A DNA stretch of 64,000 nt from an uncultured Anaerolineaceae bacterium (GTDB lineage Bacteria; Chloroflexota; Anaerolineae; Aggregatilineales; Phototrophicaceae): contig CAZQIY010000005.1 of assembly GCA_964593565.1 (NCBI GenBank), positions 18,334 to 82,333 of the forward strand, written 5' to 3'. The number at the start of each line of letters is the position of its first letter. Positions within the stretch are counted from its first letter, which is position 1. The translations under genes and the position numbers were made by a program. Shown here piece after piece: positions 21,612 to 56,267 of the stretch. The notes under the pieces were generated by a model that ran no database searches, was not told the origin of the DNA, and was given only the letters and a program-made list of their open reading frames with translations.

Positions 21612-21644
21612 GAGCCGCTGGTTTTTTCTGTGGAGACGTGCCGG

Positions 21645-35600: not shown

Positions 35601-36602
35601 TTGAAGCACTGGCGAATCGGGTTGCTGGGGGCGGTGGTCAGCCTGCTGGCGCTCTATTTCATGCTTTCTCAGGTCGATCTGGCGCGGCTGGCACAGGCGC
35701 TGGCGGCGGCGCGTTATATTTATGTACTGCCTTCGGCGCTGCTGCTGCTGGCCGGGCTGCTGACTCGTGCGGTACGCTGGCGGGTGCTGCTCAATGGCGC
35801 GCTGCCGCTGGGGCGGGCCTTCAGCATTACCAATGTGTCCTATCTGGTCAACGGCCTGCTGCCGCTGCGCATGGGCGAGGTGGCCCGGGCGGTGCTGGCT
35901 TCGCGTGTAGAGCCGCCGGTGCCGGTGTTAAAATCGGCCAGTTCGATCATCGTCGAGCGCATGCTGGATTTGCTGGCGGTGCTGCTGCTGCTGGGGTTCG
36001 CGCTGGCGTTTGTCCCGGCGCTGCCAGATGATTATCGCACGGCGGCGATTTTCACGGTGCCGCTGCTGCTGGTCGGCTTTGGGGTGCTGGTGACGCTGGC
36101 AGCCCGGCGGGCGCATCTGCACCGTCTGCTGGCGTGGATCGTACAGCGTGCGCCCCTGCTTCAGCAGCGGAACCCGGCCGCGTGGCTCGATCATTTTCTG
36201 GATGGCCTGCTGCCCCTCACACAGCCGGCGCTGCTGCTGCGGGCGCTGTTCTGGACCGTGATAAGCTGGGGTTTTTCGCTGGCAGCCGGGTATATACTCA
36301 TGTTTGCCTTTTATGACCGGGCAGACTGGGCGGCGGCGGCGCTGTTTATCGCGGCGGCGGCGTTCGTTATCGCGGTGCCGGCGGTGCCGGGCAATATCGG
36401 CACCTATGAATGGGCGATCATGCTGGCCATGAGCGCGATGGGTTACGGCGCGGCCACAGACCCGGTGAATGTCTCCTTTGCGGTGGTGGTGCATGCGCTC
36501 AATCTGGCGCTTTATGCGGTGATGGGCACGCTGGGGTTTGTGCAGGAAGGCATCAGTCTCAACCGCCTGACCCGCGAAGTAGAAGGTTATCGCGCAACAT
36601 AA
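35601..36602 (+). CDS. UPF0104 / lysylphosphatidylglycerol-synthase-TM-domain family membrane protein (flippase-like)
   Basis: 333 aa, TTG start. KHWRIGLLGAVVSLLALYFMLSQVDLARL, RAVRWRVLL and PGNIGTYEW motifs. Eight TM helices. Confidence 0.8.
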   Translation: MKHWRIGLLGAVVSLLALYFMLSQVDLARLAQALAAARYIYVLPSALLLLAGLLTRAVRWRVLLNGALPLGRAFSITNVSYLVNGLLPLRMGEVARAVLASRVEPPVPVLKSASSIIVERMLDLLAVLLLLGFALAFVPALPDDYRTAAIFTVPLLLVGFGVLVTLAARRAHLHRLLAWIVQRAPLLQQRNPAAWLDHFLDGLLPLTQPALLLRALFWTVISWGFSLAAGYILMFAFYDRADWAAAALFIAAAAFVIAVPAVPGNIGTYEWAIMLAMSAMGYGAATDPVNVSFAVVVHALNLALYAVMGTLGFVQEGISLNRLTREVEGYRAT

Positions 36603-36618
36603 CATATACAGGAACGCA

Positions 36619-37797
36619 ATGTCCGCGAACGGTAAATCGTCGGAAAAACTGAAAATTCTGATCGCCTTGCTGTATTACTTTCCGCACCGCACCGGGCTGA
36701 CTATTCATGTGCAGCGGGTGGCGGAGGAACTGGCGCGGCGCGGGCATGAGGTGACGGTGCTGACGGCGCGCTATCACATCTCGCTGCCGCGTGACGAGGT
36801 GATTCATAACGGCGTGCGCATCGTCCGGTTGTGGACTCCGCCGGTGGCCGTCAGCCGGGGCATGGTGATGCCGGCTTATCCCTGGGCGGCGCTGGGGCTT
36901 ATGCTGCAGCATGATGTGGTGTGGGTGAATGTGCCCATGCTGGAAACGGCGCTGCTGGCGGTGCTGGCACAGCTTACCGGGCGCCCGATTGTCGCCACCC
37001 ATCATGGCGACCTGATCCTGCCGGAAGGCCGCCTGAACCGGTTTATCACAGATACCATGTTCTGGATGTACAAATTCATGGCACGGCGCAGCGCCCGCCT
37101 GATCGCCTACAGTCAGGATTATGCCGAGCATTCCTACTATCTGCGCCCCTTTCTGGATAAGGTGACGGTGATCTCTCCGCCGATTCACATGCCGCTGCCA
37201 GACCCGCAGCGGGTGGAGGCGTGGCGCAGCGAATGGGCCAACAACGGCGGCCCGGTGATCGGGTTTGCCAGCCGCTTTGTCGAGGAAAAACGGCCGGACC
37301 TGCTGCTGCGCGCCCTGGAGATTATCAACCAGCGCTACCCTAATGCGCGGCTGGTATTTGTGGGGGAGTATCCCATCAAGTACGAAAAGGAATTCTGGGA
37401 TCAGAACCAGGGGCTGCTGGAACAATACAAGGATCAACTGGTGTTCCCCGGCCTGATGACCGATATGCAGGCCATGGCGGATTTTTACGCCGCCTGCGAT
37501 GTGCTGGCGCTGACCAGCGATTCTGAATGTTTCGCGCTGGTACAGGTGGAGGCGATGCTGTGCGGCACGCCGGTGGTCATGACGGATATTCCGGGTGGGC
37601 GCGTGCCCGTGCGCGAAACCGGCATGGGCCGGCTGGCCAGGGCGGGCGACTGGCGCTCGATTGGCGAGGCGATTGTGGAGGTGCTGCAAAATCGCGAGCA
37701 GTACATCCGCCCGCGTGAAGTTATCGAGGCGAAGTTTTCCTTCCAGGAAACGGTGGATCGTTACGAGAAGGTATTCTATGACCATGCCCGACGCTGA
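36619..37797 (+). CDS. glycosyltransferase family 4 (GT-B fold, group 1)
   Basis: 392 aa. KILIALLYYFPHRTGLTIHVQRVAEELARRGHEV and the E-x7-E region ECFALVQVEAMLCGTPVV. Confidence 0.88.
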   Translation: MSANGKSSEKLKILIALLYYFPHRTGLTIHVQRVAEELARRGHEVTVLTARYHISLPRDEVIHNGVRIVRLWTPPVAVSRGMVMPAYPWAALGLMLQHDVVWVNVPMLETALLAVLAQLTGRPIVATHHGDLILPEGRLNRFITDTMFWMYKFMARRSARLIAYSQDYAEHSYYLRPFLDKVTVISPPIHMPLPDPQRVEAWRSEWANNGGPVIGFASRFVEEKRPDLLLRALEIINQRYPNARLVFVGEYPIKYEKEFWDQNQGLLEQYKDQLVFPGLMTDMQAMADFYAACDVLALTSDSECFALVQVEAMLCGTPVVMTDIPGGRVPVRETGMGRLARAGDWRSIGEAIVEVLQNREQYIRPREVIEAKFSFQETVDRYEKVFYDHARR

Positions 37798-38653
37798 CGG
37801 CGGCGTTGATCCGCAGGTGATCGCACATATGACGCGCAACGAGGCCGACATGGCCTTCAAAAAGCGCGTCCAGACCATCTTTGAATGGATCGACCCGCGC
37901 GATGACAGCCTGATTCTGGATATCCCCTGTGGGCGGGGGTTTTACCTGAACATGTTTCGCTACGTCAGCCGCTGCCAGCTTGTGGGGGCGGACCTGGATT
38001 GGGACGTGATGCTGAAGGCGCAGCGCAACGTCGGCCATCTGCCAGACATTATGCTGAATCACGCCAGCATTTATGCGCTGCCTTACCCGGACAACACCTT
38101 TGACGGCGTTATTCTTTCTGAAGTGCTGGAACATCTGGAGGACGACGTGGCTGGCCTGCGCGAAGCCTTTCGCGTGCTCAAACCGGGTGGCGTGGCGGCT
38201 GTCACCGTGCCCAATGCCAATTATCCCTTCTGGTGGGACCCGATCAACAGGACGCTGGAAACCGTCTTTGGCACGCACATCAGCCGGGGGCCGCTGGCGG
38301 GCATCTGGGCCAATCATGTACGCTTATATACACAGGAACAGTTGGAAGCCAGCGTGCAGGCATCCGGCCTGATGATTGAGGAAACGCGTGCCTTTACGCA
38401 TTATTCGTTTCCGTTTATCCATAATATAGTGTATGGCCTGGGCAAACCGCTGCTGGAAGCCGGCATGATGCCGGAAACGCTGGCGAACGCGGCGGACCGC
38501 ACCACCTTCGACAAAAACAATGGCAGCCTGCTGAACCCGGTGAACCTGGGCCTGAGAGTGTTTAATTATTTTGACCGACGCAACGCCATCAGCGAACCGC
38601 CGGGCCGGTCTACTGTGAACCTGGCCGTGAAGGCGCGCAAACCGGAACGTTAG
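37778..38653 (+). CDS. class I SAM-dependent methyltransferase
   Basis: Internal ATG at 37778 (MTMPDADGG...) of track ORF 37595..38653. It overlaps the GT4 3' end by 20 nt. SAM motif ILDIPCGRGFY, then LPYPDNTFDGVILSEVLEHL and LKPGGV. Confidence 0.82.
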   Translation: MTMPDADGGVDPQVIAHMTRNEADMAFKKRVQTIFEWIDPRDDSLILDIPCGRGFYLNMFRYVSRCQLVGADLDWDVMLKAQRNVGHLPDIMLNHASIYALPYPDNTFDGVILSEVLEHLEDDVAGLREAFRVLKPGGVAAVTVPNANYPFWWDPINRTLETVFGTHISRGPLAGIWANHVRLYTQEQLEASVQASGLMIEETRAFTHYSFPFIHNIVYGLGKPLLEAGMMPETLANAADRTTFDKNNGSLLNPVNLGLRVFNYFDRRNAISEPPGRSTVNLAVKARKPER

Positions 38654-41176
38654 ATGACTGACATTTCTTCCTTACCGCCAGAAGCTTCTGACAACGAACC
38701 ACAGGCCACCCCGGACCGCAGCTTTGAGGATTTCACGCTGGCTGAAGCAGTCGGCCAGATGCGGCGGATGCCAGCGGCGACTCTGCGTGCGCTGCGTCAG
38801 GTGGCGCGTGCGCCGCGTGGGGCCACAGCCGCGCCAGTCGCGCTGACGCCTGCTGTGCGTGCACCTGTACAGCGGCGGCAGAAGGGTCGTGCGCAGCCAG
38901 TGCCGGATGCTCAGCGGCGCGAGGCGGCGTTGTTCGGCCTGCGCATGACGGCGTTTCTGGTGGCATGGTGGGGGGCGGGCATCCTGGCCAATACCCCCCT
39001 GCGCAGCGAGGAAGTCGCGCTGGCGGCGGGCGCGCCGTTTCTGCTGGGCGGGTTTCTGATCTGGCTGGGGTCGGAACTGTATGCCGACTGGCCGGAAATC
39101 CAGCGCCGCCGGGCACAGCGCAGGCAGGCCGCAGAAGCATCGAGCGCGGCGGATGCTGTCGATGTGCCCGCAGACACAGCGCAGCCAGAGCCGGTGGTGG
39201 ATGAGCAGCCGCCACCGGACAGCCCGGCGTTCCCGGCGTGGGCCGGGCTGCATCCTGCGCGGGTGATGACCGGGCTGGCGGCGGTGCTGCTCAGCCTGCT
39301 GGCGCTGGTGTTTACGGCCAATAATCAGTTTACTTTCATCGGTTTCTGGGGCTGGATCGCCAGCATTGTCCTGTGGGTGACGACGCTGGCGCCGCAGGAT
39401 AACGGCCCGCTGGTGTGGGTGCGCGGCGCACTGGTGGCGGTGCGCGGGATTCGCTGGCGCAGCGGGGTGGTGCTGGCGCTGCTGGCGATTCTGCTGCTGG
39501 GGGCGTGGTTCCGCCTGTCGGCGCTGGATACCGTGCCGCCGGAGATGACCAGCGATCATGTGGAAAAAATCCTGGATTCGCATGGGGTGCAGCAGGGCCA
39601 GCATAACGTCTTCTTTGCCAACAACGGCGGGCGCGAACCGTTCCAGATGTACGCGATGGCGCTGTTTGCCCAGCTTCCTGGCCTGGGCATGAACCATTAC
39701 ACGCTGAAGCTGCTGTCCGTGCTGGAAGGCCTGATTTCGATTGTGGCGCTGTTCTGGATGGGGCGCGAGATCGTCGGGCAGGAAAACCGGCGTTTTGGCA
39801 ATCTGGTGGGGCTGCTGCTGGCGGCGCTGGTGGCGGCCAGCTACTGGCATACTGTGCTCAGCCGCCTGGGGCTGCGCATCGTCCTGACCACGCTGGTGAC
39901 CGCCGCGCTGCTGATATTTCTGGCGCGGGCCATGCGCCACAACCGGCGCATCGATTTTATCAAGGCCGGGCTGGTGCTGGGCTTCGGGCTGTATGCCTAT
40001 CAGGCCGTGCGGATGCTGCCGGTGGTCGTGACGGTGGGCGTAGGGCTGGCATTTCTGTTCCACGCCCGCACCTGGCTGGATCGCCGGCGCTATCTGCTCA
40101 ACTTTGGGGTGCTGGTGCTGGTGGCCTTTGTCGTGTTTGTGCCGCTGTTTGGCTACTGGCTGCAATACCCGCAGGATTTCTGGCGGCGGACCCAGGGGCG
40201 TCTGCTGGGCGATGATCTGATCGTCACCACCGATGCCGCCGGGAACCTTGTAGAACGATCCGCCACCGTGCAGGAACGTCTGCAGGCCTTCAGCGAGAAT
40301 ATGCCGATTCTGGCGAATAACTTGCGTACCGCGCTGCTGATGTTCAACTGGAAGGGCGATGTCGCCTGGATCAATGGCGACCCGAACGCGCCCGCGATGG
40401 ATGTATTTACCGGCGCGCTGCTGATTGTCGGGCTGGCGGCGTGGCTGGCGCGCATGCTGCGGCGGCGCGATGTCTTTGACTGGCTGGTTCCGCTGGCGCT
40501 GCTGATCATGCTGCTGCCGTCGGCGTTGTCGATTGCCTATCCGGTGGAGAATCCCAGTCACACCCGCACCAGCGGCGCGCTGCCAGAGGCCTACCTGATC
40601 GCGGCGCTGCCACTGGCGCTGATGGTACAGTCGATAGTGCGGATGGCCCCTGGAACGCGGGGGCGGGTGGCATCTGTCGGGCTGGCGGTGGTCGTCCTGC
40701 TGGGGGCTTATAGCCAGAATTCCCACACCTATTTTGTGGGGCATCATGAGGCCTATATTGAATCCTCGCTGCCGTATACCGAAGCCGGGCGCGTGCTGCG
40801 CGGCTTTGCAGACAGCACCGGCAGTTATGGAAACGCCTTTATGATTGGCTTTTCCTACTGGTGGGATCATCGCGCACTGGGCATTGAGGCCGGGCGCCCG
40901 GACTGGCCCAACGGCATCATTTCTGCGGATAACCTGAAGGAATTCTTACGCATCGCTGCCCAGCGCACGGATGCCTACCAGCTTGACCCGGACCGGGACC
41001 TGATGTTCTTTTTTGCCACTGAGGATGAGAACACACAGGCGATTCTGGCACAGCATTTCCCCCAGGGGCGGACGGTGATCCGGCAGAGCTATCAGCCGGA
41101 TGACACCTATAACCTGTATCTGGTGCCGGCCCTGGGTGCCGATGGCTTCCTGCGGTGGCTGATGGAAGCCGGATGA
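38654..41176 (+). CDS. GT-C fold membrane glycosyltransferase (family 39-like), 840 aa
   Basis: ATG directly follows the methyltransferase TAG. After ~200 aa of N-terminal low-complexity sequence and TM helices comes the loop LDTVPPEMTSDHVEKILD, then GGREPFQMY, about 12 TM helices and a C-terminal soluble domain. Confidence 0.75.
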   Translation: MTDISSLPPEASDNEPQATPDRSFEDFTLAEAVGQMRRMPAATLRALRQVARAPRGATAAPVALTPAVRAPVQRRQKGRAQPVPDAQRREAALFGLRMTAFLVAWWGAGILANTPLRSEEVALAAGAPFLLGGFLIWLGSELYADWPEIQRRRAQRRQAAEASSAADAVDVPADTAQPEPVVDEQPPPDSPAFPAWAGLHPARVMTGLAAVLLSLLALVFTANNQFTFIGFWGWIASIVLWVTTLAPQDNGPLVWVRGALVAVRGIRWRSGVVLALLAILLLGAWFRLSALDTVPPEMTSDHVEKILDSHGVQQGQHNVFFANNGGREPFQMYAMALFAQLPGLGMNHYTLKLLSVLEGLISIVALFWMGREIVGQENRRFGNLVGLLLAALVAASYWHTVLSRLGLRIVLTTLVTAALLIFLARAMRHNRRIDFIKAGLVLGFGLYAYQAVRMLPVVVTVGVGLAFLFHARTWLDRRRYLLNFGVLVLVAFVVFVPLFGYWLQYPQDFWRRTQGRLLGDDLIVTTDAAGNLVERSATVQERLQAFSENMPILANNLRTALLMFNWKGDVAWINGDPNAPAMDVFTGALLIVGLAAWLARMLRRRDVFDWLVPLALLIMLLPSALSIAYPVENPSHTRTSGALPEAYLIAALPLALMVQSIVRMAPGTRGRVASVGLAVVVLLGAYSQNSHTYFVGHHEAYIESSLPYTEAGRVLRGFADSTGSYGNAFMIGFSYWWDHRALGIEAGRPDWPNGIISADNLKEFLRIAAQRTDAYQLDPDRDLMFFFATEDENTQAILAQHFPQGRTVIRQSYQPDDTYNLYLVPALGADGFLRWLMEAG

Positions 41177-41249
41177 GGCGCGGCGGTTGAGGAAAAACGT
41201 GGGGCAGTGTGTAAAATAACTGGTTTGTGTGGGCTGGATTTAAACGCTT

Positions 41250-44200
41250 ATGGCTGAAGCAAGTTTCGCGGCAGAAGGGACCGGACGGCGGGCGGGCTGG
41301 CTCAGCATCACCCTCAGCGATGTGGTGGTGGGGGTGCTGCTGGTGCTGGTGATGCTGGTGGGCGGGTATTTCCGCTTTGTGGGGCAGAACTGGGACGATT
41401 TTACCCACCTGCACCCGGACGAGCGCTTCCTGACGGATGTCGCGTCCTCTATCGGCGGGACGCTGCGCCCCAGCCATCCCTCATCCACCGACCAGCAGGC
41501 GCAGATTGACCTGTGCATGAGCCGCTACCCGAATACCGGCGGCATCGGCGGCTATTTTGACGCGGAATGTTCCACCCTCAACCCGCACAACGCCGGCAAG
41601 GGCCTGTATGTCTATGGGACGCTGCCGTTGTTCGCGGCCCGCGCGGCGGGCGATTTACTGGTCCAGCAGACCGGCGATACCTCGTTAAACAGTTACAGCG
41701 GGGTGCATCTGGTCTGGCGCAGCCTGTCCGCGCTGGCGGAGATGGTGGTGATTCTGGCCGTCTTTGCCATGGGCTACGAACTGCATGGTAAATGGGTCGG
41801 GCTGGTGGCCGGGGCGTTGTATGCCGCCGCCGTCTTTTCGATTCAGGCTTCGCATTTTGGCACGGCAGATGCCATGACCAACGCCTTTGCCGCGCTGGGG
41901 CTGCTGTTCGCGGTGCGGGTGCAGCTTCGCGGCGGACTGCTGGATTATGCATTTTTCGGGCTGGCGTTTGGGGCGGCCCTGGCCAGCCGGGTGAATATTG
42001 CACCGCTGGGCGGGGTGATTGTGCTGGCGGCCATGGTGAACGCGCTGCCGGTGCTGGATCTGCGGCTGGCGGCGGGGCTGCGCTGGCGGCTGCTGCGTCA
42101 GCACGCCCTGGGGCTGATGCTGGCAGGCATCCTGACCGTGCTGGTGTTCCGCATTTTTAACCCATATGCCTTTATGGGGCCGGGGTTCTTTGGCCTGGTG
42201 CCCAACCCGCGCTGGCTGGCGGATATTGCCCAGGCGCGGCATCTGGTCAGCGGCGCGGCGGAAATGCCGCCTAACTGGCAGTGGGTGGGCCGCACGCCCT
42301 ATCTGTTTGCGCTGAACAACATGGTGCTGTGGGGCATGGGGATCGCGCTCGGCCTGACGGGGCTGGCCGGGTGGGTGTGGTCTGGCTGGCGGCTGCTGCG
42401 CGGCAGCGCCGGCGCGCTGCGTAACCTGCTGCCGGTGATATGGTTTCTGGTGTATTTTGGCTGGCTGGGGGCCAACTGGGTCGCCACCATGCGCTATTTT
42501 CTGCCGCTGTATCCGGTCTTTGCGCTGCTGGCGGCCTGGCTGCTGGGCGAACTGGTGCAGCGCGCCCAGGGGCGGCCTGTGCCCCGCCTGTTGGCGGGCG
42601 CGTTCATGGTGCTGGTGGTGGGGTTCACCTTCCTGTGGGCGGCCATGTTCACCAATATTTACCGCCACCAGCTTACCCGCGTGCAGGCCAGCCACTGGTT
42701 CTGGGAGCAGGCACCGGGCGATTTTGCCATGCGGGTCGAAGGCGCGCGGCCGGATACCCCGCTGATCAATATCGCGGTGAGCAACGGCCCGGGGCAGGGG
42801 TATGACCTGCTGGTGAAGGCCTCTGCCCACTATGAAGAAAGCCCGTTTGAATATCTGTTCACCGCCCCGGCCACCGGCACAATCAGCAGTATATATGCGC
42901 CGCACCTGGGCGATAGAGACGATGACCCGGAACCGGAAACCGTCCGCGCGGCGATTCAGGCGGTGGATACGGGCGAAATTCTGGCGGAAGTGACGCTGAC
43001 CGCCAACCTGACACGCGCCAATCATGTGCTGGGCGATGCCTATGACATGCAGTTGGATTCGCCAGCAGCCGTGACCGGGGGGCAGCAGTATCGCTTCATC
43101 TTTGAGGTGATCGAGGGCGGGCCAGTGGTCAGCGGCGGTTCTGTGGTGTCGCATGAAGGCGGCTGGGATGATCCGATCCCCTATACCGTCTGCACGCTGC
43201 CACCGGGCATCAGTCTGGCGGATGATCCGCCGCCGGGCCTGCTGAACGCCCATAACTGCAATGGGCGCACGGCCTGGAGCGCGTTGATTGTGGGCTATGA
43301 CATGCCGCTGGCGACAGAGGATGAGGCGTATAAGCGCGATCTGATGCTGCAGGCGCTGCGCGACAGCGATTACCTGACCATCAGCAGCAACCGGTTTTAC
43401 GACTCGCAGAACCGCATCCCCACCCGCTGGCCGATGACCAACGCCTATTATGACAAACTATTCGCGGGCGAACTCGGCTTTGAGCTGGCAGCGCTGTTCC
43501 AGGAAACCTTCGAGCTGGGGCCGCTGCGTATTTCTGACCAGCACCTGCCGATTTACGACAGCCCGGCCTGGCTGAACGAATTTGAGGCGGAAGAAGCCTT
43601 TCATGTTTACGATCATCCGGTGGTGTTTGTGTTCCGCAAAACGGCGGACTACGATCACCGGCAGGTCGAGAACTTCTTCCACTCCGTCCCGCTGAACCGG
43701 GCTACAGCCGCCGGATCGAACCCGGTGGAAAACTGCCCGTCGGTCTTTATGCAGCCCGGCGGGGGCGGCTGCGATACCACCCTGATTGATACCTTCACCC
43801 TGTCCGCGCTGGATACAGACCCGGCCCCCACCCAGCTCATGCTGACGGACGAACGGCGGGCGATTCAGGAAACGAATGGCAGTTGGCACGAACTGTTTGA
43901 CCGCGACAGCATCATCAACACCCAGCCAGTGCTGACGGTGGCGGTCTGGTGGCTGGCGATTATGGTCATTGGCTGGGTGACGTGGCCGCTGCTGTTCGGG
44001 TTGTTCCCGGCGCTGGCGGATCGTGGCTATGCGGTGGCCAAGCTGGCCGGGCTGGTGCTGATCGGCTGGAGCACGTGGTATGCCGCCAGCGGCGGGCTGG
44101 CGTTGTGGTCGCAGGGCGGCATCCTGCTGGCGATGGCGCTGCTGGCGGTGGCTGGTCTGGTGGTGGTATGGCGGCACCGCGATTCGTTTTTTGGCTATGT

Positions 44201-46508: not shown

Positions 46509-46514
46509 GGATAC

Positions 46515-49061: not shown

Positions 49062-49109
49062 ATCACCTGAGACGAATCTTTCTGCTGAACGAGTCAACAC
49101 AGGGGCGAT

Positions 49110-50963
49110 ATGCAAGCGGTAACACCTTCTCATCAACTGACGCAGGCACAACCCGGCAGCGCGATCCGCGTGGCCTATGAATGGCTGCTGGTGGCGGCGC
49201 TGCTGGCCCTGTCGGTATGGCTGCGCCTGGCCGAACTGGATACCGTGCCGCTTTCTGAACCAGAGGCGACCCAGGCACTGGCGGCGTGGCGGGCCTTGCA
49301 TCCGCACCTGTCCGGTGGCGCGATTGTGCCTGAAAGTCCGCTGCTGTTTCTGCTGCATGGGGTGGCATTTTCGGCGCTGGGGAGCAGCGAATTTACGGTG
49401 CGCGTTTTTACGGCGCTGGCGGGGGCCTTGCTGCTGACCACGCCGCTGCTGTTCCGGGATGCGCTGGGGCGCGGGCGGGCTTTCCTGTTCACCCTGCTGC
49501 TGACCTTCTCGCCGGTGCTGCTGGTGGCATCGCGTTTCGATTCCCCTATGATCTGGTGCGCCCTGTGCGCCGTGCTGGGCCTGTGGGCGCTGTGGCGCTG
49601 GTGGCGGTCCGGGCTGGCGGGCTGGGCGCTGGCGGCATCGGCGCTGTTTGCCGCTGTCGTGCTGCTGACGGACCCGGCGGGCTGGATTTTCGGGCTGGTG
49701 CTGCTGGGGGCGGGCGCGGTGGCCCTGCTGTGGAACCGGGTGGATAACCCCGATGATGACCCGCTGCCCCAGGTGCAGCAGCATTTGCGGGGCTGGCCCT
49801 GGCAGCAGGCGCTGCTGGTGGGTGGGCTGGCGCTGTTTGCGGTGGCGACGGCCTTCATGTTTTACCTGCCCGGCCTGTCCGCCATCAGTCAGCTTCTGCA
49901 AAGCGGCTTTGCTGGCCTGCTGACATCTCAGGCGGGTGCGCCGCCGGCTTTCCCGCTGCTGACCACGCTTTTTTATGAGCCGCTGCTGTGGGTATTCGGC
50001 CTGGCCGGGTTCCTGCTGCTGGCGCGGCGGGGTGAACTGACCCTGCTGGATCGCTTTCTGGCGGCCTGGGTGGTGCTGGGCGGGGTGGCGGCGCTGCTGT
50101 ATCAGGGCGGCGGGCCACAGCACGCGCTCTGGCTGACCCTGCCGCTGACGGGACTGGCGACGGCGGTGGCGCTGGAATGCCTGAAGCCGGACAAGCACCC
50201 GTTTCTGGATGTGCCATCCTGGGGTAAATGGGTGGTGGCGGTGGTGGTGTTCGCGCTGCTGATTATCCTCGCTATCAATTTTCAGGGCATGGTGCGTGCG
50301 GTGCTGCAAACGGCCGATGGCAGCCTGCTGTCGGTGCAGCCGGACCCGATCAATACAGTCTGGACGGTGATTGCCCTGTTGTTTATGATCGTCGGGTATT
50401 TCCTGGTATCCAGCCTGTGGGGCAGCCCGGCAGCCCTGCGCGGCGGCGCGCTGGGGGTGCTGGCGTTTGCACTGGTGACTTCGCTGGGCAGCGGATGGGC
50501 CGCGGCTGTAACGAACGCGGCCAACCCGGCGGAATTCTGGCATGTAGAGCCGACCAGCCGCGAAACGCTGCTGCTGCGCGATACGCTGCGGGAACTGACC
50601 CGGCGCGAGAGCGAGGGTTTCCCCCGCATGACCGTCTATGTGCAGGCCCCGGATGATGGCGTGATCGGCTGGATGCTGCGTGAATTTACCGATGCGCGCT
50701 ACATTGTGGAGCCAACCGAGGCGCGGGCGCAGGAAGTGGCCCTGCTGGCGGCTGCGGGCGAACCGCCGGAACTGGGCGGCAGTTATGTCGGGCAGAATTT
50801 TGTCCTGGCGCGCACCTGGGCTGCGGGATCGCTGGCCGGGCTGGATTTTCTGCCCTGGTGGACTCAGCGCCGGGTGCGGCTTCAGCCGCTGCCAACGCAG
50901 GAGATGACGCTGTGGCTGCGGCAGGATGTTTATGACGGGGTCGATTTTAGCCCGGCAGGCTGA
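49110..50963 (+). CDS. TIGR03663-like polytopic membrane protein, variant lacking the DE/HGP invariants
   Basis: 617 aa. Aligns by eye with the N-terminal two-thirds of the 52158 protein (FTVRVFTALAGALLLTTPLLFRDALGRGRAF vs FTSRIYPAALGVAMVLMPLLFRRWLGRTGAL). It has LSEPEA (49254-49268) where the paralogue has SHDESL, and no HGP. Confidence 0.65.
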   Translation: MQAVTPSHQLTQAQPGSAIRVAYEWLLVAALLALSVWLRLAELDTVPLSEPEATQALAAWRALHPHLSGGAIVPESPLLFLLHGVAFSALGSSEFTVRVFTALAGALLLTTPLLFRDALGRGRAFLFTLLLTFSPVLLVASRFDSPMIWCALCAVLGLWALWRWWRSGLAGWALAASALFAAVVLLTDPAGWIFGLVLLGAGAVALLWNRVDNPDDDPLPQVQQHLRGWPWQQALLVGGLALFAVATAFMFYLPGLSAISQLLQSGFAGLLTSQAGAPPAFPLLTTLFYEPLLWVFGLAGFLLLARRGELTLLDRFLAAWVVLGGVAALLYQGGGPQHALWLTLPLTGLATAVALECLKPDKHPFLDVPSWGKWVVAVVVFALLIILAINFQGMVRAVLQTADGSLLSVQPDPINTVWTVIALLFMIVGYFLVSSLWGSPAALRGGALGVLAFALVTSLGSGWAAAVTNAANPAEFWHVEPTSRETLLLRDTLRELTRRESEGFPRMTVYVQAPDDGVIGWMLREFTDARYIVEPTEARAQEVALLAAAGEPPELGGSYVGQNFVLARTWAAGSLAGLDFLPWWTQRRVRLQPLPTQEMTLWLRQDVYDGVDFSPAG

Positions 50964-51025
50964 GGATTTTCCGGGCAGGGTGTGTATAAACGGGGTAGTT
51001 ATTTTTGGACAACGGCGGTCTGAGT

Positions 51026-51607
51026 ATGCAGGCAATAGATCAGGCAATTGAGCGCTGTCTTGCGGGCGATCAGCAAAGTTATGCAACCCTGTACGATGAA
51101 TTTGCAGGCGGCATCTATCGCCTGTGTTACAGCCTTCTGCTCAACCGGCAGGACGCCGAAGACGTGACGCAGGAAACATTTGTCTATGCGTTCCGCAACC
51201 TGCGGCGCTATGATCCGCAGCGCGCCGCCTTCAGGACGTGGCTGTACACCATCGCCATCAGCCGCTGCCGCAATCTTTACCGGCGCAAGCGGCCCATGAT
51301 GATGGACATCGCGCAGATGTTGCAGCTCCGGCTGTACAGCCCAAAATCGGAAACGCCGGAAAACGCGCTGTCTGCACAGGATGCCCGCAGCACGCTGGAA
51401 TCCGCCCTGGCGGCGCTTTCGCCCCGCCTGCGCGAGGCGGTGGTGCTGCGCTATGGGCACGGGCTGATGTATCGTGAAATGGCCGAAATTATGAACTGCC
51501 CGCAAAAGACCGCAGAAAGCCGGGTGCGGCTGGCGCACGATGCGCTGCGCGGCCTGCTGCAGGCGGAAGGTCCAGGGTTGCTGGAAGAACTGCTGACGAG
51601 TTCGTAA
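51026..51607 (+). CDS. ECF-type RNA polymerase sigma-70 family factor
   Basis: ATG at 51026 (the track uses TTG 51005). Region 2 DAEDVTQETFVYAFRNLRRYDP...FRTWLYTIAISRC. Region 4 LSPRLREAVVLRYGHGLMYREMAEIMNCPQKTAESRV. Confidence 0.9.
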   Translation: MQAIDQAIERCLAGDQQSYATLYDEFAGGIYRLCYSLLLNRQDAEDVTQETFVYAFRNLRRYDPQRAAFRTWLYTIAISRCRNLYRRKRPMMMDIAQMLQLRLYSPKSETPENALSAQDARSTLESALAALSPRLREAVVLRYGHGLMYREMAEIMNCPQKTAESRVRLAHDALRGLLQAEGPGLLEELLTSS

Positions 51608-51629
51608 AGAGTTTACAGGTACAGACGCG

Positions 51630-52142
51630 ATGTTATGGCGATTGCTGGCTTGTCGTTACTATCATTCAAAACTGGATGCCTTTGTCGATGGCAGACTGTC
51701 TCCGCGTGCGCGGCGGCGTCTGGCGCGGCACATGGATCACTGCCCGGCCTGTTACCGGGCCTATACCCGGCGGCGCGATCTGCATCAGGACCTGCGGCAG
51801 ACTGTGCCTCTGGTCGGGCGCGATCATGCGCCGGATTTTGACCGAATCTGGGGCGCGGTGCGTACCGAGCTGCCCCAGCCCCGGCGGCCTCAGTTTCGTT
51901 ATGGGGTGGCGGTGCTGCTGCTATTACTGGCGCTGCTGGTGCCGTTTACGATGGGCAATCATGAACTGACGCGGGTGATTCCGGAGCATCCTGTGCCACA
52001 TGCGGAACCTTCGACCGAGACACCGGAGCGCACCGATGAGCCACAGATGATGGCTACGGTGGCGGCGTCCTCGACCATGGCGAGCAGTCTGGCACAGGAG
52101 ACTGCCCCCCCGACTTTGCCGGAACCCGATGGGAATCAATAA
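51630..52142 (+). CDS. anti-sigma factor (zf-HC2 type), single-pass membrane protein
   Basis: 170 aa. Zinc-binding motif RHMDHCPACYRAY, TM YGVAVLLLLLALLVPFTM, and a short Pro/Thr/Glu-rich external tail. Lies 22 nt after the sigma gene. Confidence 0.8.
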   Translation: MLWRLLACRYYHSKLDAFVDGRLSPRARRRLARHMDHCPACYRAYTRRRDLHQDLRQTVPLVGRDHAPDFDRIWGAVRTELPQPRRPQFRYGVAVLLLLLALLVPFTMGNHELTRVIPEHPVPHAEPSTETPERTDEPQMMATVAASSTMASSLAQETAPPTLPEPDGNQ

Positions 52143-52157
52143 GGGCGAGTATTTGGC

Positions 52158-55100
52158 ATGGCAACGACGATTGAACATCCCTCACAGACAGAGGCGGTCA
52201 GCCCGCTGAACCGTTTTCTGCTGACTTCTCAGGCCGTAAACTGGGAAATCATCGCCTACACGGTCATCTTCCTGCTGGCGATCTTCACGCGCTTTTACAT
52301 GCTGGGCGATCGGGTGATGAGCCACGACGAAAGCCTGCACACCCGCTACTCGTACAATCTGTACGCAGAAGGCGACTTCCAGCACACCCCGCTGATGCAC
52401 GGGCCGATTCTGTTCCACATCACCGGCTTTTTCTACTTCCTGTTTGGCGACAACGATTTTACGTCGCGCATTTATCCGGCGGCGCTGGGGGTGGCGATGG
52501 TGCTCATGCCGCTGCTGTTCCGCCGCTGGCTGGGGCGCACCGGGGCGCTGCTGGCGTCGATCATGCTGCTGATTTCCCCGATCATCCTGTATTACAACCG
52601 CTACATCCGGCACGATACGCCGTCGACGTTCTTTGCCCTGCTGATGCTGTATGCCATCATGATGTACCTGGCCGGGCCAGAGACGCAGCGACGGCGCGCC
52701 CACTGGCTCTATCTGCTGGCCGGGGCCATGATCGGCAACCTGGGGTCGAAGGAAACCTCGTTTATTTACATCGCCATTTTCGGCAGTTTCCTCACGCTGT
52801 ACTGGCTGGTGCGGCTGGGGCAGCATCTGTGGCGCTGGCGGGGCAGGACGCTGTTTTATTTCCTGACAGTGGGCATTCTGCTGGCGGGGGTGGCCGCGCT
52901 TGGCATTTATGTGGTCTGGTCAATTGTCACACCGGAGCGCGCAGCAGAGGCGGCCCAGCTCAACGGTGGCTGGCTGGCGAGCGTGGATTCCGCCACCTTT
53001 ATCCTGGGGACTCTGGTAGTGTTCGCGGTGGTGGTGGTCGTCATGCTGGCGACTCTGCTGTGGGCGTTCCGCCGCAGCCAGGTTTCGATTCGCCGCAGCG
53101 ATGTTGTGGCGCTGGTGCTGATCGCTGTGATCGTCTGCGCAGGTCTGATCATTATTGAGGAACTGTCGCATGTCAGCCCGGCCAGTTCTGCGGAGACAGC
53201 CGCGCCTTCTGTGCCCGGCGAGGAAATGGTCGAAACCGGCGTTGGACTGCGCTCTCTGCCGCTGATTATCGCCTGGGTGCTGGCCGCGCTGGTGGTGCTG
53301 GGGGTGCTGGCCTCCTGGCGGCTGGGCTGGTGGCAGACGCTGCACCAGTTCCCGGAACTGGATATTCTCCTCGTCATGGGCACGCTGATTCTGCCCTGGC
53401 TGGCGCCGTTTATTATTACGGCGATGGGGGTGGTTGCCACAGATTATTCTACTGATGGCATTGTCCGCGCTGTGCTGGCGCTGATCCCGCTGGCCGCCAT
53501 TTCGATTACGGTCGGGCTGGTGTGGAACTGGCGGCGCTGGCTGGTGTGCGTGGCGATCTTTTACGCTATTTTCGCCTTTTTCTTTACGACTATGTTTACC
53601 AATATCAACGGCCTGGCCACCGGCGTGATCGGCAGTCTGGGCTACTGGCTGGAACAGCAGGGCGTGCGCCGGGGCAGCCAGCCGCAGTATTATTACCTGG
53701 CCCTGATTATGCCGTTTTATGAATTTCTGCCGGTGCTGGGCAGTATCCTGGCCATGTTCAGCGGCCTGTCCCTGTTCTGGGGCTACCGCCGCCGCCGTCT
53801 GGCAGAAGAAGAAGCAGGGCTGGCGCTGGCCAGCATCAATGGCGACGAGCCGCCGCTGGCGGATGCAGACGACCCGGAAGCTGAAATTCCCGCGCTCAGC
53901 GAACTGGTGGTGGACGCGCCATCTGAAACAGAGCCGGGGGTGGTGCCGGATGCATCGGCCTATATCGACGGAAAGCGTAAGGAACGGGCCGACTGGCTGG
54001 ATCGCCTGCCATTTCTGCTGTTTGTCAGTTGGTGGTCCATCCTCAACCTGGTGGGGTATACGCTGGCGGGCGAAAAGATGCCCTGGCTGGGCACCCATCT
54101 GACTCTGCCGCTGATCTTCCTGACGGGCTGGTACTTCGGCAGAATCTTCGAGCGCATCGACTGGCAGAAGTTCCGGCAGGGCGGCTGGTTGTATCTGGTG
54201 CTGCTGCCGCTGCTGTTTGTCACGCTGTTTCAGGTTATCATGCCGTTTATTTTTGGGCGCGGGCCGTTCGCCGGGCTGGAACAGGCGCAGTTGGCGCAGT
54301 CTGGCCAGTGGCTGGCGGTGGTGGCCGTCAGCGGCTTTGTGGTGCTGGCCATCTACCAGCTTGTCGAACGCACGGGCTGGCGGCATCTACGCGGCATGTT
54401 CGCGCTGGCGCTGTTTGGTTTCCTCAGCCTGCTGACGGCGCGCTCTGCCTTTATGGCCTCGTTCATCAACTATGATCTGGCCACAGAATATCTGGTGTAT
54501 GCGCACGCGGCCCCGGCGGTCAAAACGGTGCTTGATGACATCGAGGAAATGAGCCTGCGCACCACAGATGGCTATGACCTGAGCTTTGCCTACGATAACG
54601 AGGTATCCTGGCCATATAGCTGGTATTTCCGCAATTATCCTAACGCGCAGTACTTTGGCAGCAGCCCCAGCCGCCCGGTTATCGACAATTCTATGGCGGT
54701 GGTGGTAGGCGAGGCCAATCGCGCCGCAGTCGAACCGCTGCTGGAAGATCGCTTCTATCACTTCGAATATATCCGGCTGTGGTGGCCCATGCAGGATTAT
54801 TTCAACCTGACGCCGGAACGCCTGCTGAACGCGCTCGACTTTTCGCCGGATAACCCCAATGCCGCCCTGGTGCGGCGCGGCCTGTTTGATATCTGGTGGT
54901 CGCGCGATTACACCACCTATGGGCAGGCGGTGTCGCGCAGCTTTGATGTCACGCGCTGGCCGGTGTCGGACCGGATGCATTACTACGTGCGCAAGGATGT
55001 CGCTTCTGAAATCTGGACTCTGGGTGTGGGCGAAGGCAGCGTTGCCAACCCGCTGGATGAACTGGAGGTCAACGTCTGTAATGCCAACTGGCAGTTGATG

Positions 55101-56132
55101 GCGGCGGATGTGGTCATGGGCAGCCTGGGGCCAGCAGACGGGCAGTTGAACCGTCCGGTAGGGCTGGCGATTGGCCCGGATAACACCCTGTACATTGCTG
55201 AAGAATCCAACGATCGGCTGTCTGCCTATACCACGCAGGGCGAATTTATACGCACCTTTGGCGACGGCGATGGCCTGGTGTTCGCGCGTCCCAACAGCGT
55301 CAGTGTCGGGCCGGATGGCAATCTGTATGTGGCGGATACCTGGAATTACCAGATTCTGGTGCTGTCGCCCGAAGGCGAAGTGCTCAACCGCTGGGGCGAG
55401 CCGGGTGAGTATGGCCAGAACGCGCAGACCGAACCGGTCTATGGGTTCTGGGGGCCGCGTGATGTGGTGGTGGACGGCGAAGGCCGGGTGTTTGTGGCCG
55501 ATACAGGCAACAAACGTGTGCGGGTGTACACGTCTGATGGCCAGCATATCCGCGACATCGGTTCTGCTGGCAGCGCCCCCGGCCAGCTCGATGAACCCAG
55601 CGGCCTGGCGCTGCATCCGGATGGCCGCCTGTTTGTGGCAGACTACTGGAACCGGCGTATTTCGGTCTTCAACGTGAATGGCGAGTTTCTGTACACCTTC
55701 CCGGTGCGCGCCTGGTACGACGAACAGGGCAACCGGCCTTACATGGCGGTGGATGTCGCCCGCGACCAGCTTTACGTGACGGACCCGGATGCCGGGCGCG
55801 TGCTTGTCTATAACACCGCTGGCGACTGTCTGGGATCGTTTGGCCAGCCCAGCCGCGAAGGCTTTGATGCGACACAGTTCCGCGTCTCTGGCGGCGTCGC
55901 GGTGGGATCAGATGGCGCTGTGTTTGTGTCGGATGCGGGCACGGGCCGTGTCCTGCGCTTCGCGCCGTTTGAATCCGGGCTGGACCCGGCCGGGGCGCAG
56001 CAGGAGCAGGCCCCGCTGGATGACGCGGCGGGCGAGGAAGAGGCCGCCCTGCAGGACGAAATCACCGAAGAAATCACGGCGGAAATCACACCTGAAACAG
56101 AGGCCACCAGCGAAGTGGAATCTGTAGACTAG
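52158..56132 (+). CDS. TIGR03663-like GT-C-type membrane protein fused to a C-terminal six-blade NHL-repeat propeller, 1324 aa
   Basis: N-terminal MSHDESLH (DE at 52326-52331) and LMHGPILFH (HGP at 52398-52406). About 15 TM helices. The C-terminus has repeated NHL units (RPVGLAIGPDNTLYIAEESNDRL, PNSVSVGPDGNLYVADTWNYQI, PRDVVVDGEGRVFVADTGNKRV, PSGLALHPDGRLFVADYWNRRI, and others) and an acidic tail. Confidence 0.8.
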   Translation: MATTIEHPSQTEAVSPLNRFLLTSQAVNWEIIAYTVIFLLAIFTRFYMLGDRVMSHDESLHTRYSYNLYAEGDFQHTPLMHGPILFHITGFFYFLFGDNDFTSRIYPAALGVAMVLMPLLFRRWLGRTGALLASIMLLISPIILYYNRYIRHDTPSTFFALLMLYAIMMYLAGPETQRRRAHWLYLLAGAMIGNLGSKETSFIYIAIFGSFLTLYWLVRLGQHLWRWRGRTLFYFLTVGILLAGVAALGIYVVWSIVTPERAAEAAQLNGGWLASVDSATFILGTLVVFAVVVVVMLATLLWAFRRSQVSIRRSDVVALVLIAVIVCAGLIIIEELSHVSPASSAETAAPSVPGEEMVETGVGLRSLPLIIAWVLAALVVLGVLASWRLGWWQTLHQFPELDILLVMGTLILPWLAPFIITAMGVVATDYSTDGIVRAVLALIPLAAISITVGLVWNWRRWLVCVAIFYAIFAFFFTTMFTNINGLATGVIGSLGYWLEQQGVRRGSQPQYYYLALIMPFYEFLPVLGSILAMFSGLSLFWGYRRRRLAEEEAGLALASINGDEPPLADADDPEAEIPALSELVVDAPSETEPGVVPDASAYIDGKRKERADWLDRLPFLLFVSWWSILNLVGYTLAGEKMPWLGTHLTLPLIFLTGWYFGRIFERIDWQKFRQGGWLYLVLLPLLFVTLFQVIMPFIFGRGPFAGLEQAQLAQSGQWLAVVAVSGFVVLAIYQLVERTGWRHLRGMFALALFGFLSLLTARSAFMASFINYDLATEYLVYAHAAPAVKTVLDDIEEMSLRTTDGYDLSFAYDNEVSWPYSWYFRNYPNAQYFGSSPSRPVIDNSMAVVVGEANRAAVEPLLEDRFYHFEYIRLWWPMQDYFNLTPERLLNALDFSPDNPNAALVRRGLFDIWWSRDYTTYGQAVSRSFDVTRWPVSDRMHYYVRKDVASEIWTLGVGEGSVANPLDELEVNVCNANWQLMAADVVMGSLGPADGQLNRPVGLAIGPDNTLYIAEESNDRLSAYTTQGEFIRTFGDGDGLVFARPNSVSVGPDGNLYVADTWNYQILVLSPEGEVLNRWGEPGEYGQNAQTEPVYGFWGPRDVVVDGEGRVFVADTGNKRVRVYTSDGQHIRDIGSAGSAPGQLDEPSGLALHPDGRLFVADYWNRRISVFNVNGEFLYTFPVRAWYDEQGNRPYMAVDVARDQLYVTDPDAGRVLVYNTAGDCLGSFGQPSREGFDATQFRVSGGVAVGSDGAVFVSDAGTGRVLRFAPFESGLDPAGAQQEQAPLDDAAGEEEAALQDEITEEITAEITPETEATSEVESVD

Positions 56133-56172
56133 AACTTGTCAGCAGTAGGGATTTATGCTATGATATAAGCGC

Positions 56173-56198
56173 AAAAGTGGGGCTGAAACCCCACTTTT
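56173..56198 (+). terminator. rho-independent terminator closing the glycosylation supercluster
   Basis: AAAAGTGGGG-CTGAAA-CCCCACTTTT, located 41 nt after the stop at 56132. Confidence 0.8.
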
Positions 56199-56267
56199 GT
56201 TCGTAATTGCAGGAAAACATTCCAGCCCGTATTCAGGCCATTGGAGAGTTAAGAGAAACAGGAAATT

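Follow-up and report, generated by a model that had tools for sequence, protein, structure and literature searches.

A conserved ten-gene locus of Anaerolineae with six GT-C modules and its own ECF sigma factor, a candidate pathway for an envelope glycan

A 64-kb stretch of DNA from an uncultured Anaerolineaceae bacterium (contig CAZQIY010000005.1), here called the window, carries ten co-directional open reading frames (ORFs) on its plus strand that span positions 35601-56132 in the ORF table, and they raise the question of whether these genes, g1 to g10, form one functional unit and what such a unit would make. The original prediction had described them as a complete lipid-linked glycosylation pathway with an embedded extracytoplasmic function (ECF) sigma switch, and as a candidate for an undescribed system. 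Its ten genes, their co-directional packing and the gaps between them all match the ORF table: from g1 to g10 the intergenic distances are 16, -20, 0, 73, 6, 48, 62, 22 and 15 nt, a list that assumes ATG 37778 as the start of g3 (which sits within a longer ORF, 37595-38653) and ATG 51026 as the start of g8 (whose ORF opens at TTG 51005). The family calls were likewise all right when the ten proteins were scanned with the Pfam and NCBIfam hidden Markov models (HMMs; Table 1). We find that the ten-gene block is a real conserved functional unit, far beyond chance, and that, by homology, it holds six modules of the GT-C class of glycosyltransferases (GTs) in five proteins, forming three paralogous pairs. 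An undescribed cell-envelope glycan is the probable product, because a glycolipid and flipping module, the six GT-C modules and a sigma switch of its own are combined in the locus.

The order g(1)-2-(3)-4-5-6-7-8-9-10 is kept in about 80 species-level genomes, even where protein identity falls to roughly 40%. A survey limited to a single genome for each species yielded 80 loci, from Aggregatilineales, Phototrophicaceae and Anaerolineales; one belongs to an isolate (CP146238) and two lie on contigs whose labels look like mis-binning. Gene presence was scored by tblastn with the proteins of the window, counting only loci with enough flanking sequence, that is 58 with at least 9.5 kb before g6 for the upstream genes and 54 with at least 8 kb for the downstream ones. 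Upstream of g6, the fusion of the N- and C-terminal parts of g5 is present in 58/58 loci, g4 in 54/58, g2 in 46/58 and g3 in 37/58; downstream, g7 is found in 54/54, g8 in 46/54, g9 in 39/54 (at low identity) and g10 in 48/54. The gene g1 adjoins g2 in 8 of the 15 loci with at least 600 nt visible 5' of g2. These per-gene counts define a core, g4-g5-g6-g7-(g8-g9)-g10, to which g2 is a nearly constant and g1 and g3 are variable additions. The order of all ten genes is identical in five contigs whose g6 homologues are 74, 66, 55, 53 and 53% identical to that of the window, and their flanks change (nusA, GH130, trigger factor/ClpP, or a two-component system); no acceptor-protein gene candidate is conserved in the locus among these five. 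Genes kept in the same order in about 80 species despite different flanks support the block of the original prediction as a unit, and they contradict the possibility that its genes are never co-located elsewhere. More widely, g6 homologues number thousands, and every named one comes from Anaerolineae or Chloroflexota.

Some loci depart from this order. In locus L040 g3 is missing and g2 abuts g4; in L037 and L072 the sigma/anti-sigma pair is missing and g10 directly follows g7; in L055 the genes g10-g9-g8 are inverted and placed upstream of g5; and in L059 and L062 g5-g6-g7 stand alone, with a nucleotide-sugar epimerase ahead of g5 in L059. In L078 the gene of a 1426-aa S8 subtilase separates g6 from g7, and an NAD-dependent nucleotide-sugar epimerase/dehydratase is encoded before g2.

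The protein g6 and the C-terminal half of g5 (g5-C, residues 888-1752, from nt 43911) are full members of the DUF2298/YYY family, g6 with 460.4 bits for TIGR03662 and 352.2 bits for PF10060 and g5-C with 490.8 and 353 bits, against cutoffs of 300.25 and 27.8, respectively. The YYYxG motif reads S-Y168-Y169-Y170-F-G in g6 and YYYFG at residue 1054 of g5, with no variation of Y168, Y169 or G172 among 113 sequences. Both copies share the invariant residues T136-E137-K138, D158, Y168-Y169, E320 and D330-x-H332-x-H334, followed by N377, D380, R616, N618, K622, W756, H759, Q762 and R764. The AlphaFold2 (AF2) model of g6 has a predicted local distance difference test score (pLDDT) of 93 and a predicted template modelling score (pTM) of 0.94. 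When this model was submitted to Foldseek it matched STT3A, DPY19, AglB, AftA, ArnT, PglB and EmbB with a probability of 1.0 and template modelling (TM) scores of 0.3-0.4; the nine PDB chains with E < 1e-3 are all GT-C enzymes, and residues 686-848 separately match the C-terminal globular domain of AglB (3vu0). Judged by the model, DUF2298 is a GT-C fold, and a positive-inside analysis of its helices suggests 13 canonical helices after three extra N-terminal ones; it places the polar invariants in loops on the outer face, where the C-terminal domain would also lie. Structure prediction, run on g6 and on the N-terminal part of g5 (see below), thus led to GT-C enzymes and not to the unrelated transporter families that would have spoken against the original prediction.

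The relation of DUF2298 to known GT-C enzymes lies in the fold. Like STT3, AglB and PglB (GT66) and like DPY19, it has a multi-pass GT-C domain followed by an outer AglB-like C-terminal domain; unlike them, g6 shows only 9-12% sequence identity, the low TM-scores given above and three extra predicted helices at its N terminus. No STT3 or other GT-C family of Pfam matched DUF2298 at E ≤ 10, PDB searches with the g6 sequence and with the DUF2298 profile gave no match, and neither WWD nor WxDYG, the motif expected of an oligosaccharyltransferase (OST), was found in g6 or g5-C. Since both the WWDYG motif and an STT3 HMM match are missing, DUF2298 is OST/DPY19-like in fold only. The invariant D-x-H (D330/H332) resembles by motif D161/H163 of AglB, which bind metal (PMC7226087). 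A DUF2298 profile search against 1.84 billion representatives returned 8,952 clusters with E ≤ 1e-3, of which 4,078 reach E ≤ 1e-30; the family thus numbers about 9,000 clusters at 50% identity. Some members are giants of 2,400-2,750 aa with several matched stretches (P0267, P0275, P0279, P0283 and P0288, among others); they are probably the two-copy class of the TIGR03662 description. A full-text literature search for DUF2298, PF10060, TIGR03662 and the YYY domain gave no functional study, in line with the original prediction, which had listed TIGR03662/YYY as a family of unknown function and had taken the system for a candidate undescribed one; the appendix of one paper places a DUF2298 gene within a Chloroflexi neighbourhood that also holds PMT2 genes.

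The other four modules fall into two further pairs. Profile-profile comparison with hhalign, run on trimmed alignments of the modules, joined the N-terminal part of g5 (g5-N) to g4 with 97.6% probability and g10 to g7 with 99.5% (N part) and 97.8% (C part), while the two DUF2298 modules, which make the third pair, are 27-30% identical by BLAST. The same method gave less than 8% probability for DUF2298 against either the PMT_2-type or the Agl23-type modules. Two near-invariant motifs of g10, QPQYYY (residues 508-513, nt 53679-53696) and GEKMPW (638-643, nt 54069-54086), recall the YYY and EK(P)M motifs of DUF2298, and a kinship of the two drawn from these shared motifs was rejected at an hhalign probability of about 1%.

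The proteins g4, g5-N and g10 are over the gathering score of PMT_2, and in this they are like the GT39/GT83 enzymes (O-mannosyltransferases and ArnT-like proteins), with which they also share a DE-type acidic motif in the first outer loop. A candidate catalytic acidic residue is present and conserved there in g5-N (D57/E58), g10 (D57/E58) and g4 (D301), and is absent in g7; in DUF2298 the candidates are E137 and D158, both invariant and predicted to face outward. In most of the modules the conserved residues thus agree with active enzymes. They differ from GT39/GT83 in having beta-sandwich and NHL outer domains and no MIR domain, and in that one module is fused to a DUF2298 GT-C; neither MIR nor PMT_4TMC matched any protein of the block in Pfam, which sets these proteins apart from GT39 proper. 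For g4 the PMT_2 score is 27.9 bits (cutoff 26.1), and among 58 orthologues D301 is invariant and E304 and D308 are conserved in the first outer loop region. Its outer C-terminal domain contains the string YWWDHR (nt 40859-40873), of which W736, D738 and R740 are conserved in at least 90% of the orthologues; the string recalls the WWDYG of oligosaccharyltransferases and may be a chance likeness, as g3 also has a WWD. The fusion protein g5 begins with a PMT_2-type GT-C membrane domain (residues 1-480; 28.3 bits when the N-half is scanned alone) that bears HPDERF at residues 55-60, with H55-P56-D57-E58 nearly invariant, and continues with an outer beta-sandwich and alpha/beta domain at about 490-880. 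An AF2 model of residues 1-887 (pLDDT 90) matched AglB, Pmt4 (TM-score 0.59 on the target), STT3, ALG9/12, ArnT and EmbC in Foldseek, and all 38 PDB chains with E < 1e-3 are GT-C enzymes; PDB sequence searches with g5-N and with the membrane part of g10 found no solved relative. Two more PMT_2-type GT-C genes lie on the plus strand of the window outside the block, at 160-2190 (45.6 bits) and 21630-23459 (43.1 bits), and the genome is therefore rich in GT-C enzymes.

The third pair, g10 and g7, is of the TIGR03663 type. The TIGRFAM text of this family gives an invariant DE dipeptide and an HGP tripeptide near the N terminus and originally noted that its genes often lie beside those of TIGR03662 (YYY), as they do in the block. 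At 229.6 bits, g10 is over the TIGR03663 cutoff of 126.25 and is a family member, and it also scores with PMT_2 (39 bits), PMT (23.5 bits) and NHL (106 bits). Its membrane part covers residues 1-770 and its NHL propeller about 985-1275 (nt 55110-55982), and at least 90% of 56 orthologues keep H56-D57-E58 and H81-G82-P83. In the PDB sequence search the NHL part alone of g10 was matched, and the solved NHL domains are mostly protein or ligand binders. With 69.4 bits g7 is under the same cutoff, a remote homologue and not a member, and no Pfam family matched it even at E ≤ 10. In g7, S-E-P-E52 takes the place of H-D-E, so that the aspartate of the DE pair is missing, and HGV replaces HGP; few of its residues are conserved, and its cross-species identity (median 35%) is the lowest in the block. 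The loss of this aspartate from the catalytic loop, together with its fast evolution, makes g7 a likelier candidate for an accessory subunit, or for one that handles the lipid carrier, than for a transferase.

The view that TIGR03663 has no known function is outdated. NCBIfam now names the family 'flippase activity-associated protein Agl23', and purified Agl23 of Haloarcula hispanica is reported to flip the lipid-linked oligosaccharide M5GN2-PP-lipid in proteoliposomes and to complement a yeast rft1 deletion (PMC11182771). The likeness of g10 to the H. hispanica protein, which works with Agl22, consists in its score over the family cutoff and in the DE and HGP signatures; unlike it, g10 is bacterial and three times longer, with additional helices in the membrane besides its linker and NHL propeller, and no GT2-type dolichyl-phosphate (Dol-P)-hexose synthase equivalent to Agl22 is encoded next to it.

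The first three genes encode what looks like a module for making and flipping a glycolipid. With PF03706 (149 bits) and TIGR00374 (59.9 bits) g1 is over both cutoffs, and it has 7 hydrophobic segments; g2, a generic GT4 enzyme, scores 95 bits with Glycos_transf_1 and 73 bits with Glyco_trans_4_4, and its nearest solved relatives are BshA-type GT4 enzymes, PimA and MshA. The methyltransferase g3, likewise generic, scores 66 bits with Methyltransf_11, with weak PDB matches that include a D-glucose O-methyltransferase. Related arrangements have been described: PplT/UPF0104 domains are fused to GT-B glycosyltransferases in Chloroflexi, and to S-adenosylmethionine (SAM)-dependent methyltransferases (bioRxiv 10.1101/2022.03.11.483950), and archaeal UPF0104 genes neighbour PMT/STT3-like genes, with some UPF0104 domains fused to the Dol-P-hexose-forming AglD and proposed as flippases for glycosylation intermediates (PMC5898192). 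The operons gpgSDF of Pseudomonas aeruginosa, for glucosaminyl-phosphatidylglycerol (GlcN-PG), and hexSDF of Clostridioides difficile, for an aminohexosyl glycolipid, combine a GT4 gene with an adjoining UPF0104/MprF-type gene for a predicted flippase and make glycosylated glycerolipids, with a tailoring enzyme encoded between or beside the two (PMC12713373). In g1-g3 the GT4 and UPF0104 genes are likewise neighbours, but the tailoring enzyme is a SAM methyltransferase and no deacetylase, and the module is attached to six GT-C modules. No NCBIfam equivalog cutoff was reached by g2, which is not an orthologue of GlcN_PG_synth, since it scores 57.9 bits with NF053787 against a cutoff of 480; the resemblance is one of architecture and not of membership.

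The sigma factor g8 scores 67.7 bits with Sigma70_r2, 44.9 bits with r4_2 and 100 bits with TIGR02937, and no equivalog cutoff was reached. Its neighbour g9 matches zf-HC2 (34.4 bits) and has an N-terminal zinc-binding H-x3-C-x2-C motif (H34...C38..C41; HMDHCPAC at 34) and, from hydropathy, a transmembrane segment at 91-109 with a short outer tail rich in Pro, Thr, Ser and Ala. Sigma regions 2 and 4 alone, an adjacent H-x3-C-x2-C anti-sigma factor and a bipartite motif 5' of g8 mark the two as a pair of an ECF sigma factor and a zinc-binding anti-sigma factor (ZAS). The motif, TGAGGAAT-N15-GTGTA, is of ECF type and stands before both g8 and g5. A cross-species alignment of g8 upstream regions gave the consensus T(G/A)AGGA(A/T)-N15-GTGTA(t/a)A; RAGGA-N14-16-GTGTA occurs in 47/61 of these regions (N15 in 43), 58-136 nt before the projected start, and across species the motif often takes the stop codon of g7 as its TGA.

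A position weight matrix (PWM) was trained solely on the g8 upstream sites and run over both strands of the window, where exactly two sites reach at least 11 bits, both on the plus strand: the training site at 50961-50986 (31.5 bits) and an independent site at 41188-41213 (29.7 bits), which lies 37 nt upstream of the g5 ATG. Shuffled windows gave 0-2 matches at 11 bits. The related loci, about 1.6 Mb in all, hold 46 sites of 20 bits or more before g8 (the training class), 33 before g5, 2 before g7 and 2 before g6, with almost nothing elsewhere, and all are on the coding strand. The g5-upstream sites in 33 other species lie within 400 nt of the tblastn match in 29 cases and at 550-592 nt in 4. 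A site of at least 18 bits precedes g5 in 30/56 loci that carry the sigma gene, the 95th percentile of the background being 5.1 bits. The g5 motif is absent in L037, L072, L076 and L078, all of which have no sigma gene in the locus; L059 has a strong site and L062 a sub-threshold one of 15.4 bits. The embedded switch proposed in the original prediction is thus supported, and it is strengthened by a conserved motif before both g8 and g5. The genes g5-g10 are probably under the embedded sigma factor, and on the simplest reading of the two sites g8 would autoregulate g8-g9-g10 and drive g5-g6-g7, with g1-g4 transcribed separately. Because of the two internal ECF-type promoter motifs the locus is probably several transcription units and a single operon is unlikely, an idea that we set aside. 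A literature search combining ECF, Chloroflexi and mannosyltransferase found nothing.

Mycobacteria offer a precedent for many GT-Cs at work on one product. In the route from phosphatidylinositol mannosides (PIM) to lipomannan (LM) and lipoarabinomannan (LAM), the cytoplasmic GT4 enzymes PimA and PimB' prime a glycolipid, which is flipped and then elongated outside by PimE, MptA/B/C, EmbC and AftA-D with polyprenyl-phosphate sugars as donors, and both LM/LAM and arabinogalactan are built stepwise outside the membrane by many GT-Cs. The block is like this mycobacterial and corynebacterial route in that the solved relatives of g2 include PimA, the model of g5-N matches EmbC and that of g6 matches EmbB and AftA, and an outer beta-sandwich follows the membrane domain of g5-N, as the carbohydrate-binding modules do in Emb proteins. 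It is unlike it in belonging to Chloroflexota with no sequence-level orthology found, in using PMT_2, DUF2298 and Agl23-type modules instead of GT87, GT53 and GT85, and in holding all genes in one locus with an embedded ECF pair. Protein glycosylation usually needs one GT-C. The many GT-Cs of the locus resemble the stepwise extracytoplasmic building of a polymer more than protein glycosylation, and a glycan or a lipid is favoured as the acceptor by their number and diversity, by the Emb and AftA matches and by the beta-sandwich domain on the outside.

What the data show directly is which genes are present and in what order, the families and folds to which their products belong, the conserved residues, the synteny and the two motif sites; we infer the substrates, donor lipids, order of steps and product of the locus. 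We read the block as ECF-regulated extracytoplasmic assembly of an envelope glycan or lipoglycan with an LM/LAM-like logic, a reading that in our estimate has an even chance of being right. In such a pathway g2, with g3 where it is present, would make a (methylated) glycolipid at the cytoplasmic face of the membrane and g1 would flip it, mirroring GpgS/GpgF, HexS/HexF and the PimA-type priming of mycobacterial PIM/LM/LAM. The six GT-C modules would work outside the membrane with polyprenyl-phosphate-linked sugars supplied by enzymes encoded elsewhere, and would build a complex glycan by elongating and decorating either the glycolipid primer or a different acceptor in the envelope, which would be held by the outer beta-sandwich of g5 and the g10 propeller. 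For g7 a role as an accessory or lipid-carrier-handling subunit is proposed rather than that of a transferase. The pair g8/g9 would act as an envelope-signal switch, in which release from the anti-sigma factor lets g8 fire the TGAGGAAT-N15-GTGTA promoters; that before g5 would drive g5-g6-g7, that before g8 would drive g8-g9-g10, and g1-g4 would be transcribed from upstream.

Several observations weigh against this envelope-glycan model. A protein acceptor is favoured by the closest structural matches of DUF2298, OST and DPY19, both of which modify proteins, and by the frequent binding of proteins by NHL propellers. The low TM-scores, 0.3-0.4, allow fold-level kinship only for g6, and the Agl23 family is reported as flippase-associated, not as a transferase. 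Neither a phosphoglycosyltransferase nor a GT2 polyprenyl-phosphate glycosyltransferase was found in the cluster or among the other scanned ORFs of the window, so the donor supply is only assumed. Since a substantial minority of loci have no g1 or g3, or none that was detected, the 'primer' module may be only loosely coupled to the GT-C core. As for the switch, only 30/56 loci reach at least 18 bits before g5, the median best site being 19.4 bits, and we infer that g8 is the factor that recognises the motif from their co-occurrence, which is a correlation.

Among the alternatives, unrelated genes for membrane proteins might lie side by side by chance or position only, as Anaerolineae genomes carry many GT-C genes and the window alone has two more of PMT_2 type; however, the order is kept in about 80 species with changing flanks, the g5 fusion is invariant, and g5 and g8 share a promoter motif. 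We consider this explanation next to impossible and reject it on the synteny. A protein glycosylation machine is the main alternative. Its GT-C modules would modify secreted, S-layer or sheath proteins, DUF2298 being a divergent OST- or DPY19-like enzyme and the PMT_2 modules O-glycosyltransferases, with NHL and beta-sandwich domains that bind the protein. The best Foldseek neighbours of g6 (STT3A, DPY19 and AglB), the match of its C-terminal domain to that of AglB, the likeness of the invariant D330/H332 of g6 and g5-C to AglB D161/H163 (PMC7226087), the conserved W736-x-D738 of YWWDHR in the outer domain of g4, the PMT_2/PMT matches and the binding of proteins or ligands by most solved NHL domains all agree with it. 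Yet the WWDYG motif is absent from g6 and g5-C, Pfam gives DUF2298 no STT3 match even at E ≤ 10, and the PDB searches by sequence and by profile gave none either; at TM-scores of 0.3-0.4, AftA, ArnT and EmbB, with lipid or polysaccharide acceptors, stand among the same g6 matches; six GT-C modules joined to a GT4/flippase module of glycolipid type would be unusual; and the five relatives' contigs hold no conserved acceptor-protein gene candidate. On this balance we take protein glycosylation to be rather unlikely.

The self-contained polyprenyl pathway of the original prediction, in which GT4 and methyltransferase assemble a methylated sugar on a cytoplasmic polyprenyl carrier, g1 flips it and the GT-Cs transfer it outside, seems to us improbable, more so than a protein acceptor. 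In its favour, GT-C enzymes use polyprenyl-phosphate-linked donors, and the genes g1-g4 lie close together and overlap or abut. However, polyprenyl-phosphate-monosaccharide donors are made by GT2 enzymes and not by GT4, and the cluster has neither a phosphoglycosyltransferase nor a GT2 of the DPM1/GtrB/ArnC type. The archaeal UPF0104-AglD fusions, as proposed flippases (PMC5898192), would suit this pathway, but the characterised GT4 and UPF0104 operons act on glycerolipids (PMC12713373), many species do without g1 or g3 but retain the GT-C core, and a single donor would not need six GT-C modules of three families. With its priming enzyme absent from the cluster and its precedents acting on glycerolipids, a complete lipid-linked pathway is supported only in part. 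Another proposal concerns g7 and possibly g10, which, as Agl23-type proteins, would be polyprenyl-phosphate-sugar flippases or scramblases feeding the PMT_2 and DUF2298 enzymes, and it is compatible with a glycan as well as with a protein acceptor. The NCBIfam name of TIGR03663, the translocation and yeast rft1 rescue by H. hispanica Agl23 (PMC11182771), and the poor conservation of g7 and its missing DE aspartate speak for it; on the other side, g7 is below the family cutoff, the locus already has a flippase-like g1, and g10 keeps H-D-E, HGP and PMT/PMT_2 homology, like an active GT-C catalytic loop, and has a large outer NHL domain that a simple flippase would not be expected to carry. The conservation of HDE and HGP and the size of its outer domain speak for a catalytic g10, and we regard the flippase proposal, like that of a protein acceptor, as a minority view. 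A joint reading, which we hold tentatively and find slightly easier to accept than either of these two, sees DUF2298/YYY as an uncharacterised GT-C family, maybe sister to the OST/DPY19 lineage. The PMT_2-DUF2298 double enzyme, the second DUF2298 protein and the two Agl23-type proteins would then be an ECF-induced assembly line for an unknown class of envelope glycoconjugate (for example a lipoglycan or a sheath or wall glycan of monoderm filamentous bacteria), with the Agl23-type proteins as carrier-lipid flippases coupled directly to the GT-C transferases.

Every component of the locus belongs to a known superfamily (GT-C, GT4, UPF0104 or ECF), so the system is not categorically new. New are the fold-level assignment of DUF2298 and its genomic context, the invariant PMT_2-DUF2298 double enzyme, the architecture of three GT-C pairs, the Agl23-type proteins of bacterial origin, of which g10 bears an NHL propeller, and the locus-specific ECF circuit with two conserved promoters. 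DUF2298/YYY thereby gains a first functional context and a fold assignment, GT-C and OST/DPY19/AftA-like. Bacterial Agl23-type proteins beside GT-C enzymes bear on how polyprenyl-phosphate sugars flip, and if the joint reading is true, they would be the long-sought carrier-lipid flippases. Wastewater sludge, sediments and hot springs harbour abundant Anaerolineae, whose envelope chemistry has hardly been described. Conserved class-wide and with six GT-C modules, the locus is a prime candidate for a major envelope-glycan pathway, and the predicted sigma factor, the two promoter sites and the isolate genome CP146238, which carries the locus, make it a directly testable system.

Table 1. Genes and signals of the block, with positions in the 64-kb window
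Feature	Position	Strand	Evidence
g1, 333-aa membrane protein of the MprF-flippase-domain family (LPG_synthase_TM/UPF0104/PplT), predicted lipid flippase	35601..36602	+	Pfam, NCBIfam
g2, 392-aa cytoplasmic GT4 (GT-B, retaining-type) glycosyltransferase	36619..37797	+	Pfam
g3, 291-aa class I SAM-dependent methyltransferase, 20-nt overlap with g2	37778..38653	+	Pfam
g4, 840-aa PMT_2-type GT-C membrane protein	38654..41176	+	Pfam, hhalign
P(g5), ECF-type promoter motif TGAGGAA-N14-GTGTA in the 73-nt g4/g5 gap	41188..41213	+	PWM
g5, 1752-aa fusion of PMT_2-type GT-C, outer domain and DUF2298/YYY module	41250..46508	+	HMM, AF2
g6, 848-aa stand-alone DUF2298/YYY protein, GT-C fold, C-terminal outer globular domain 686-848	46515..49061	+	HMM, AF2
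g7, 617-aa degenerate Agl23/TIGR03663-like membrane protein	49110..50963	+	sub-cutoff TIGR03663, hhalign
P(g8), ECF-type promoter motif TGAGGAT-N14-GTGTA, its TGA being the g7 stop codon	50961..50986	+	PWM
g8, ECF (group 4) sigma factor	51026..51607	+	Pfam, NCBIfam
g9, single-pass zf-HC2 anti-sigma factor	51630..52142	+	Pfam, motif, hydropathy
g10, 1324-aa Agl23/TIGR03663-family GT-C-like membrane protein with linker domain, NHL beta-propeller and acidic tail	52158..56132	+	HMM
Intrinsic terminator hairpin closing the block, ahead of nusA	56171..56200	+	folding

The block is bordered by housekeeping genes on both sides, with gyrA (31990-34506), ribosomal protein L25 (minus strand) and tRNA-Gly(CCC) (35356-35428) on the 5' flank and nusA (56268), infB (58616) and truB on the 3' flank. 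The clean terminator of the original prediction is borne out by folding: the hairpin has a 12-bp stem (-19.5 kcal/mol, z = -3.74, with 0/200 shuffles folding as well) and is followed by a U-rich tail, UUGUU. No convincing sigma-70-type promoter was called 5' of g1, and an Rfam scan gave the tRNA only and no leader RNA element. A perfect sigma-70 consensus (TTGACA-17-TATAAT, 35468-35440, minus strand) precedes the tRNA-Gly(CCC) gene, and because this promoter points away from the cluster, the 170-nt stretch before g1 is a divergent promoter region. Opposite g5-g8 runs a 1673-aa antisense frame (46065-51086, minus strand), with similar long antisense ORFs under g4, g5 and g10; these are most likely by-products of GC-rich codon usage in HMM-supported plus-strand genes. 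Elsewhere in the window, two large minus-strand ORFs without a Pfam match (2211-4082 and 4082-6460) lie in a stretch, 2001-6460, with a G+C content of 0.67 against about 0.58-0.63 in the remainder.

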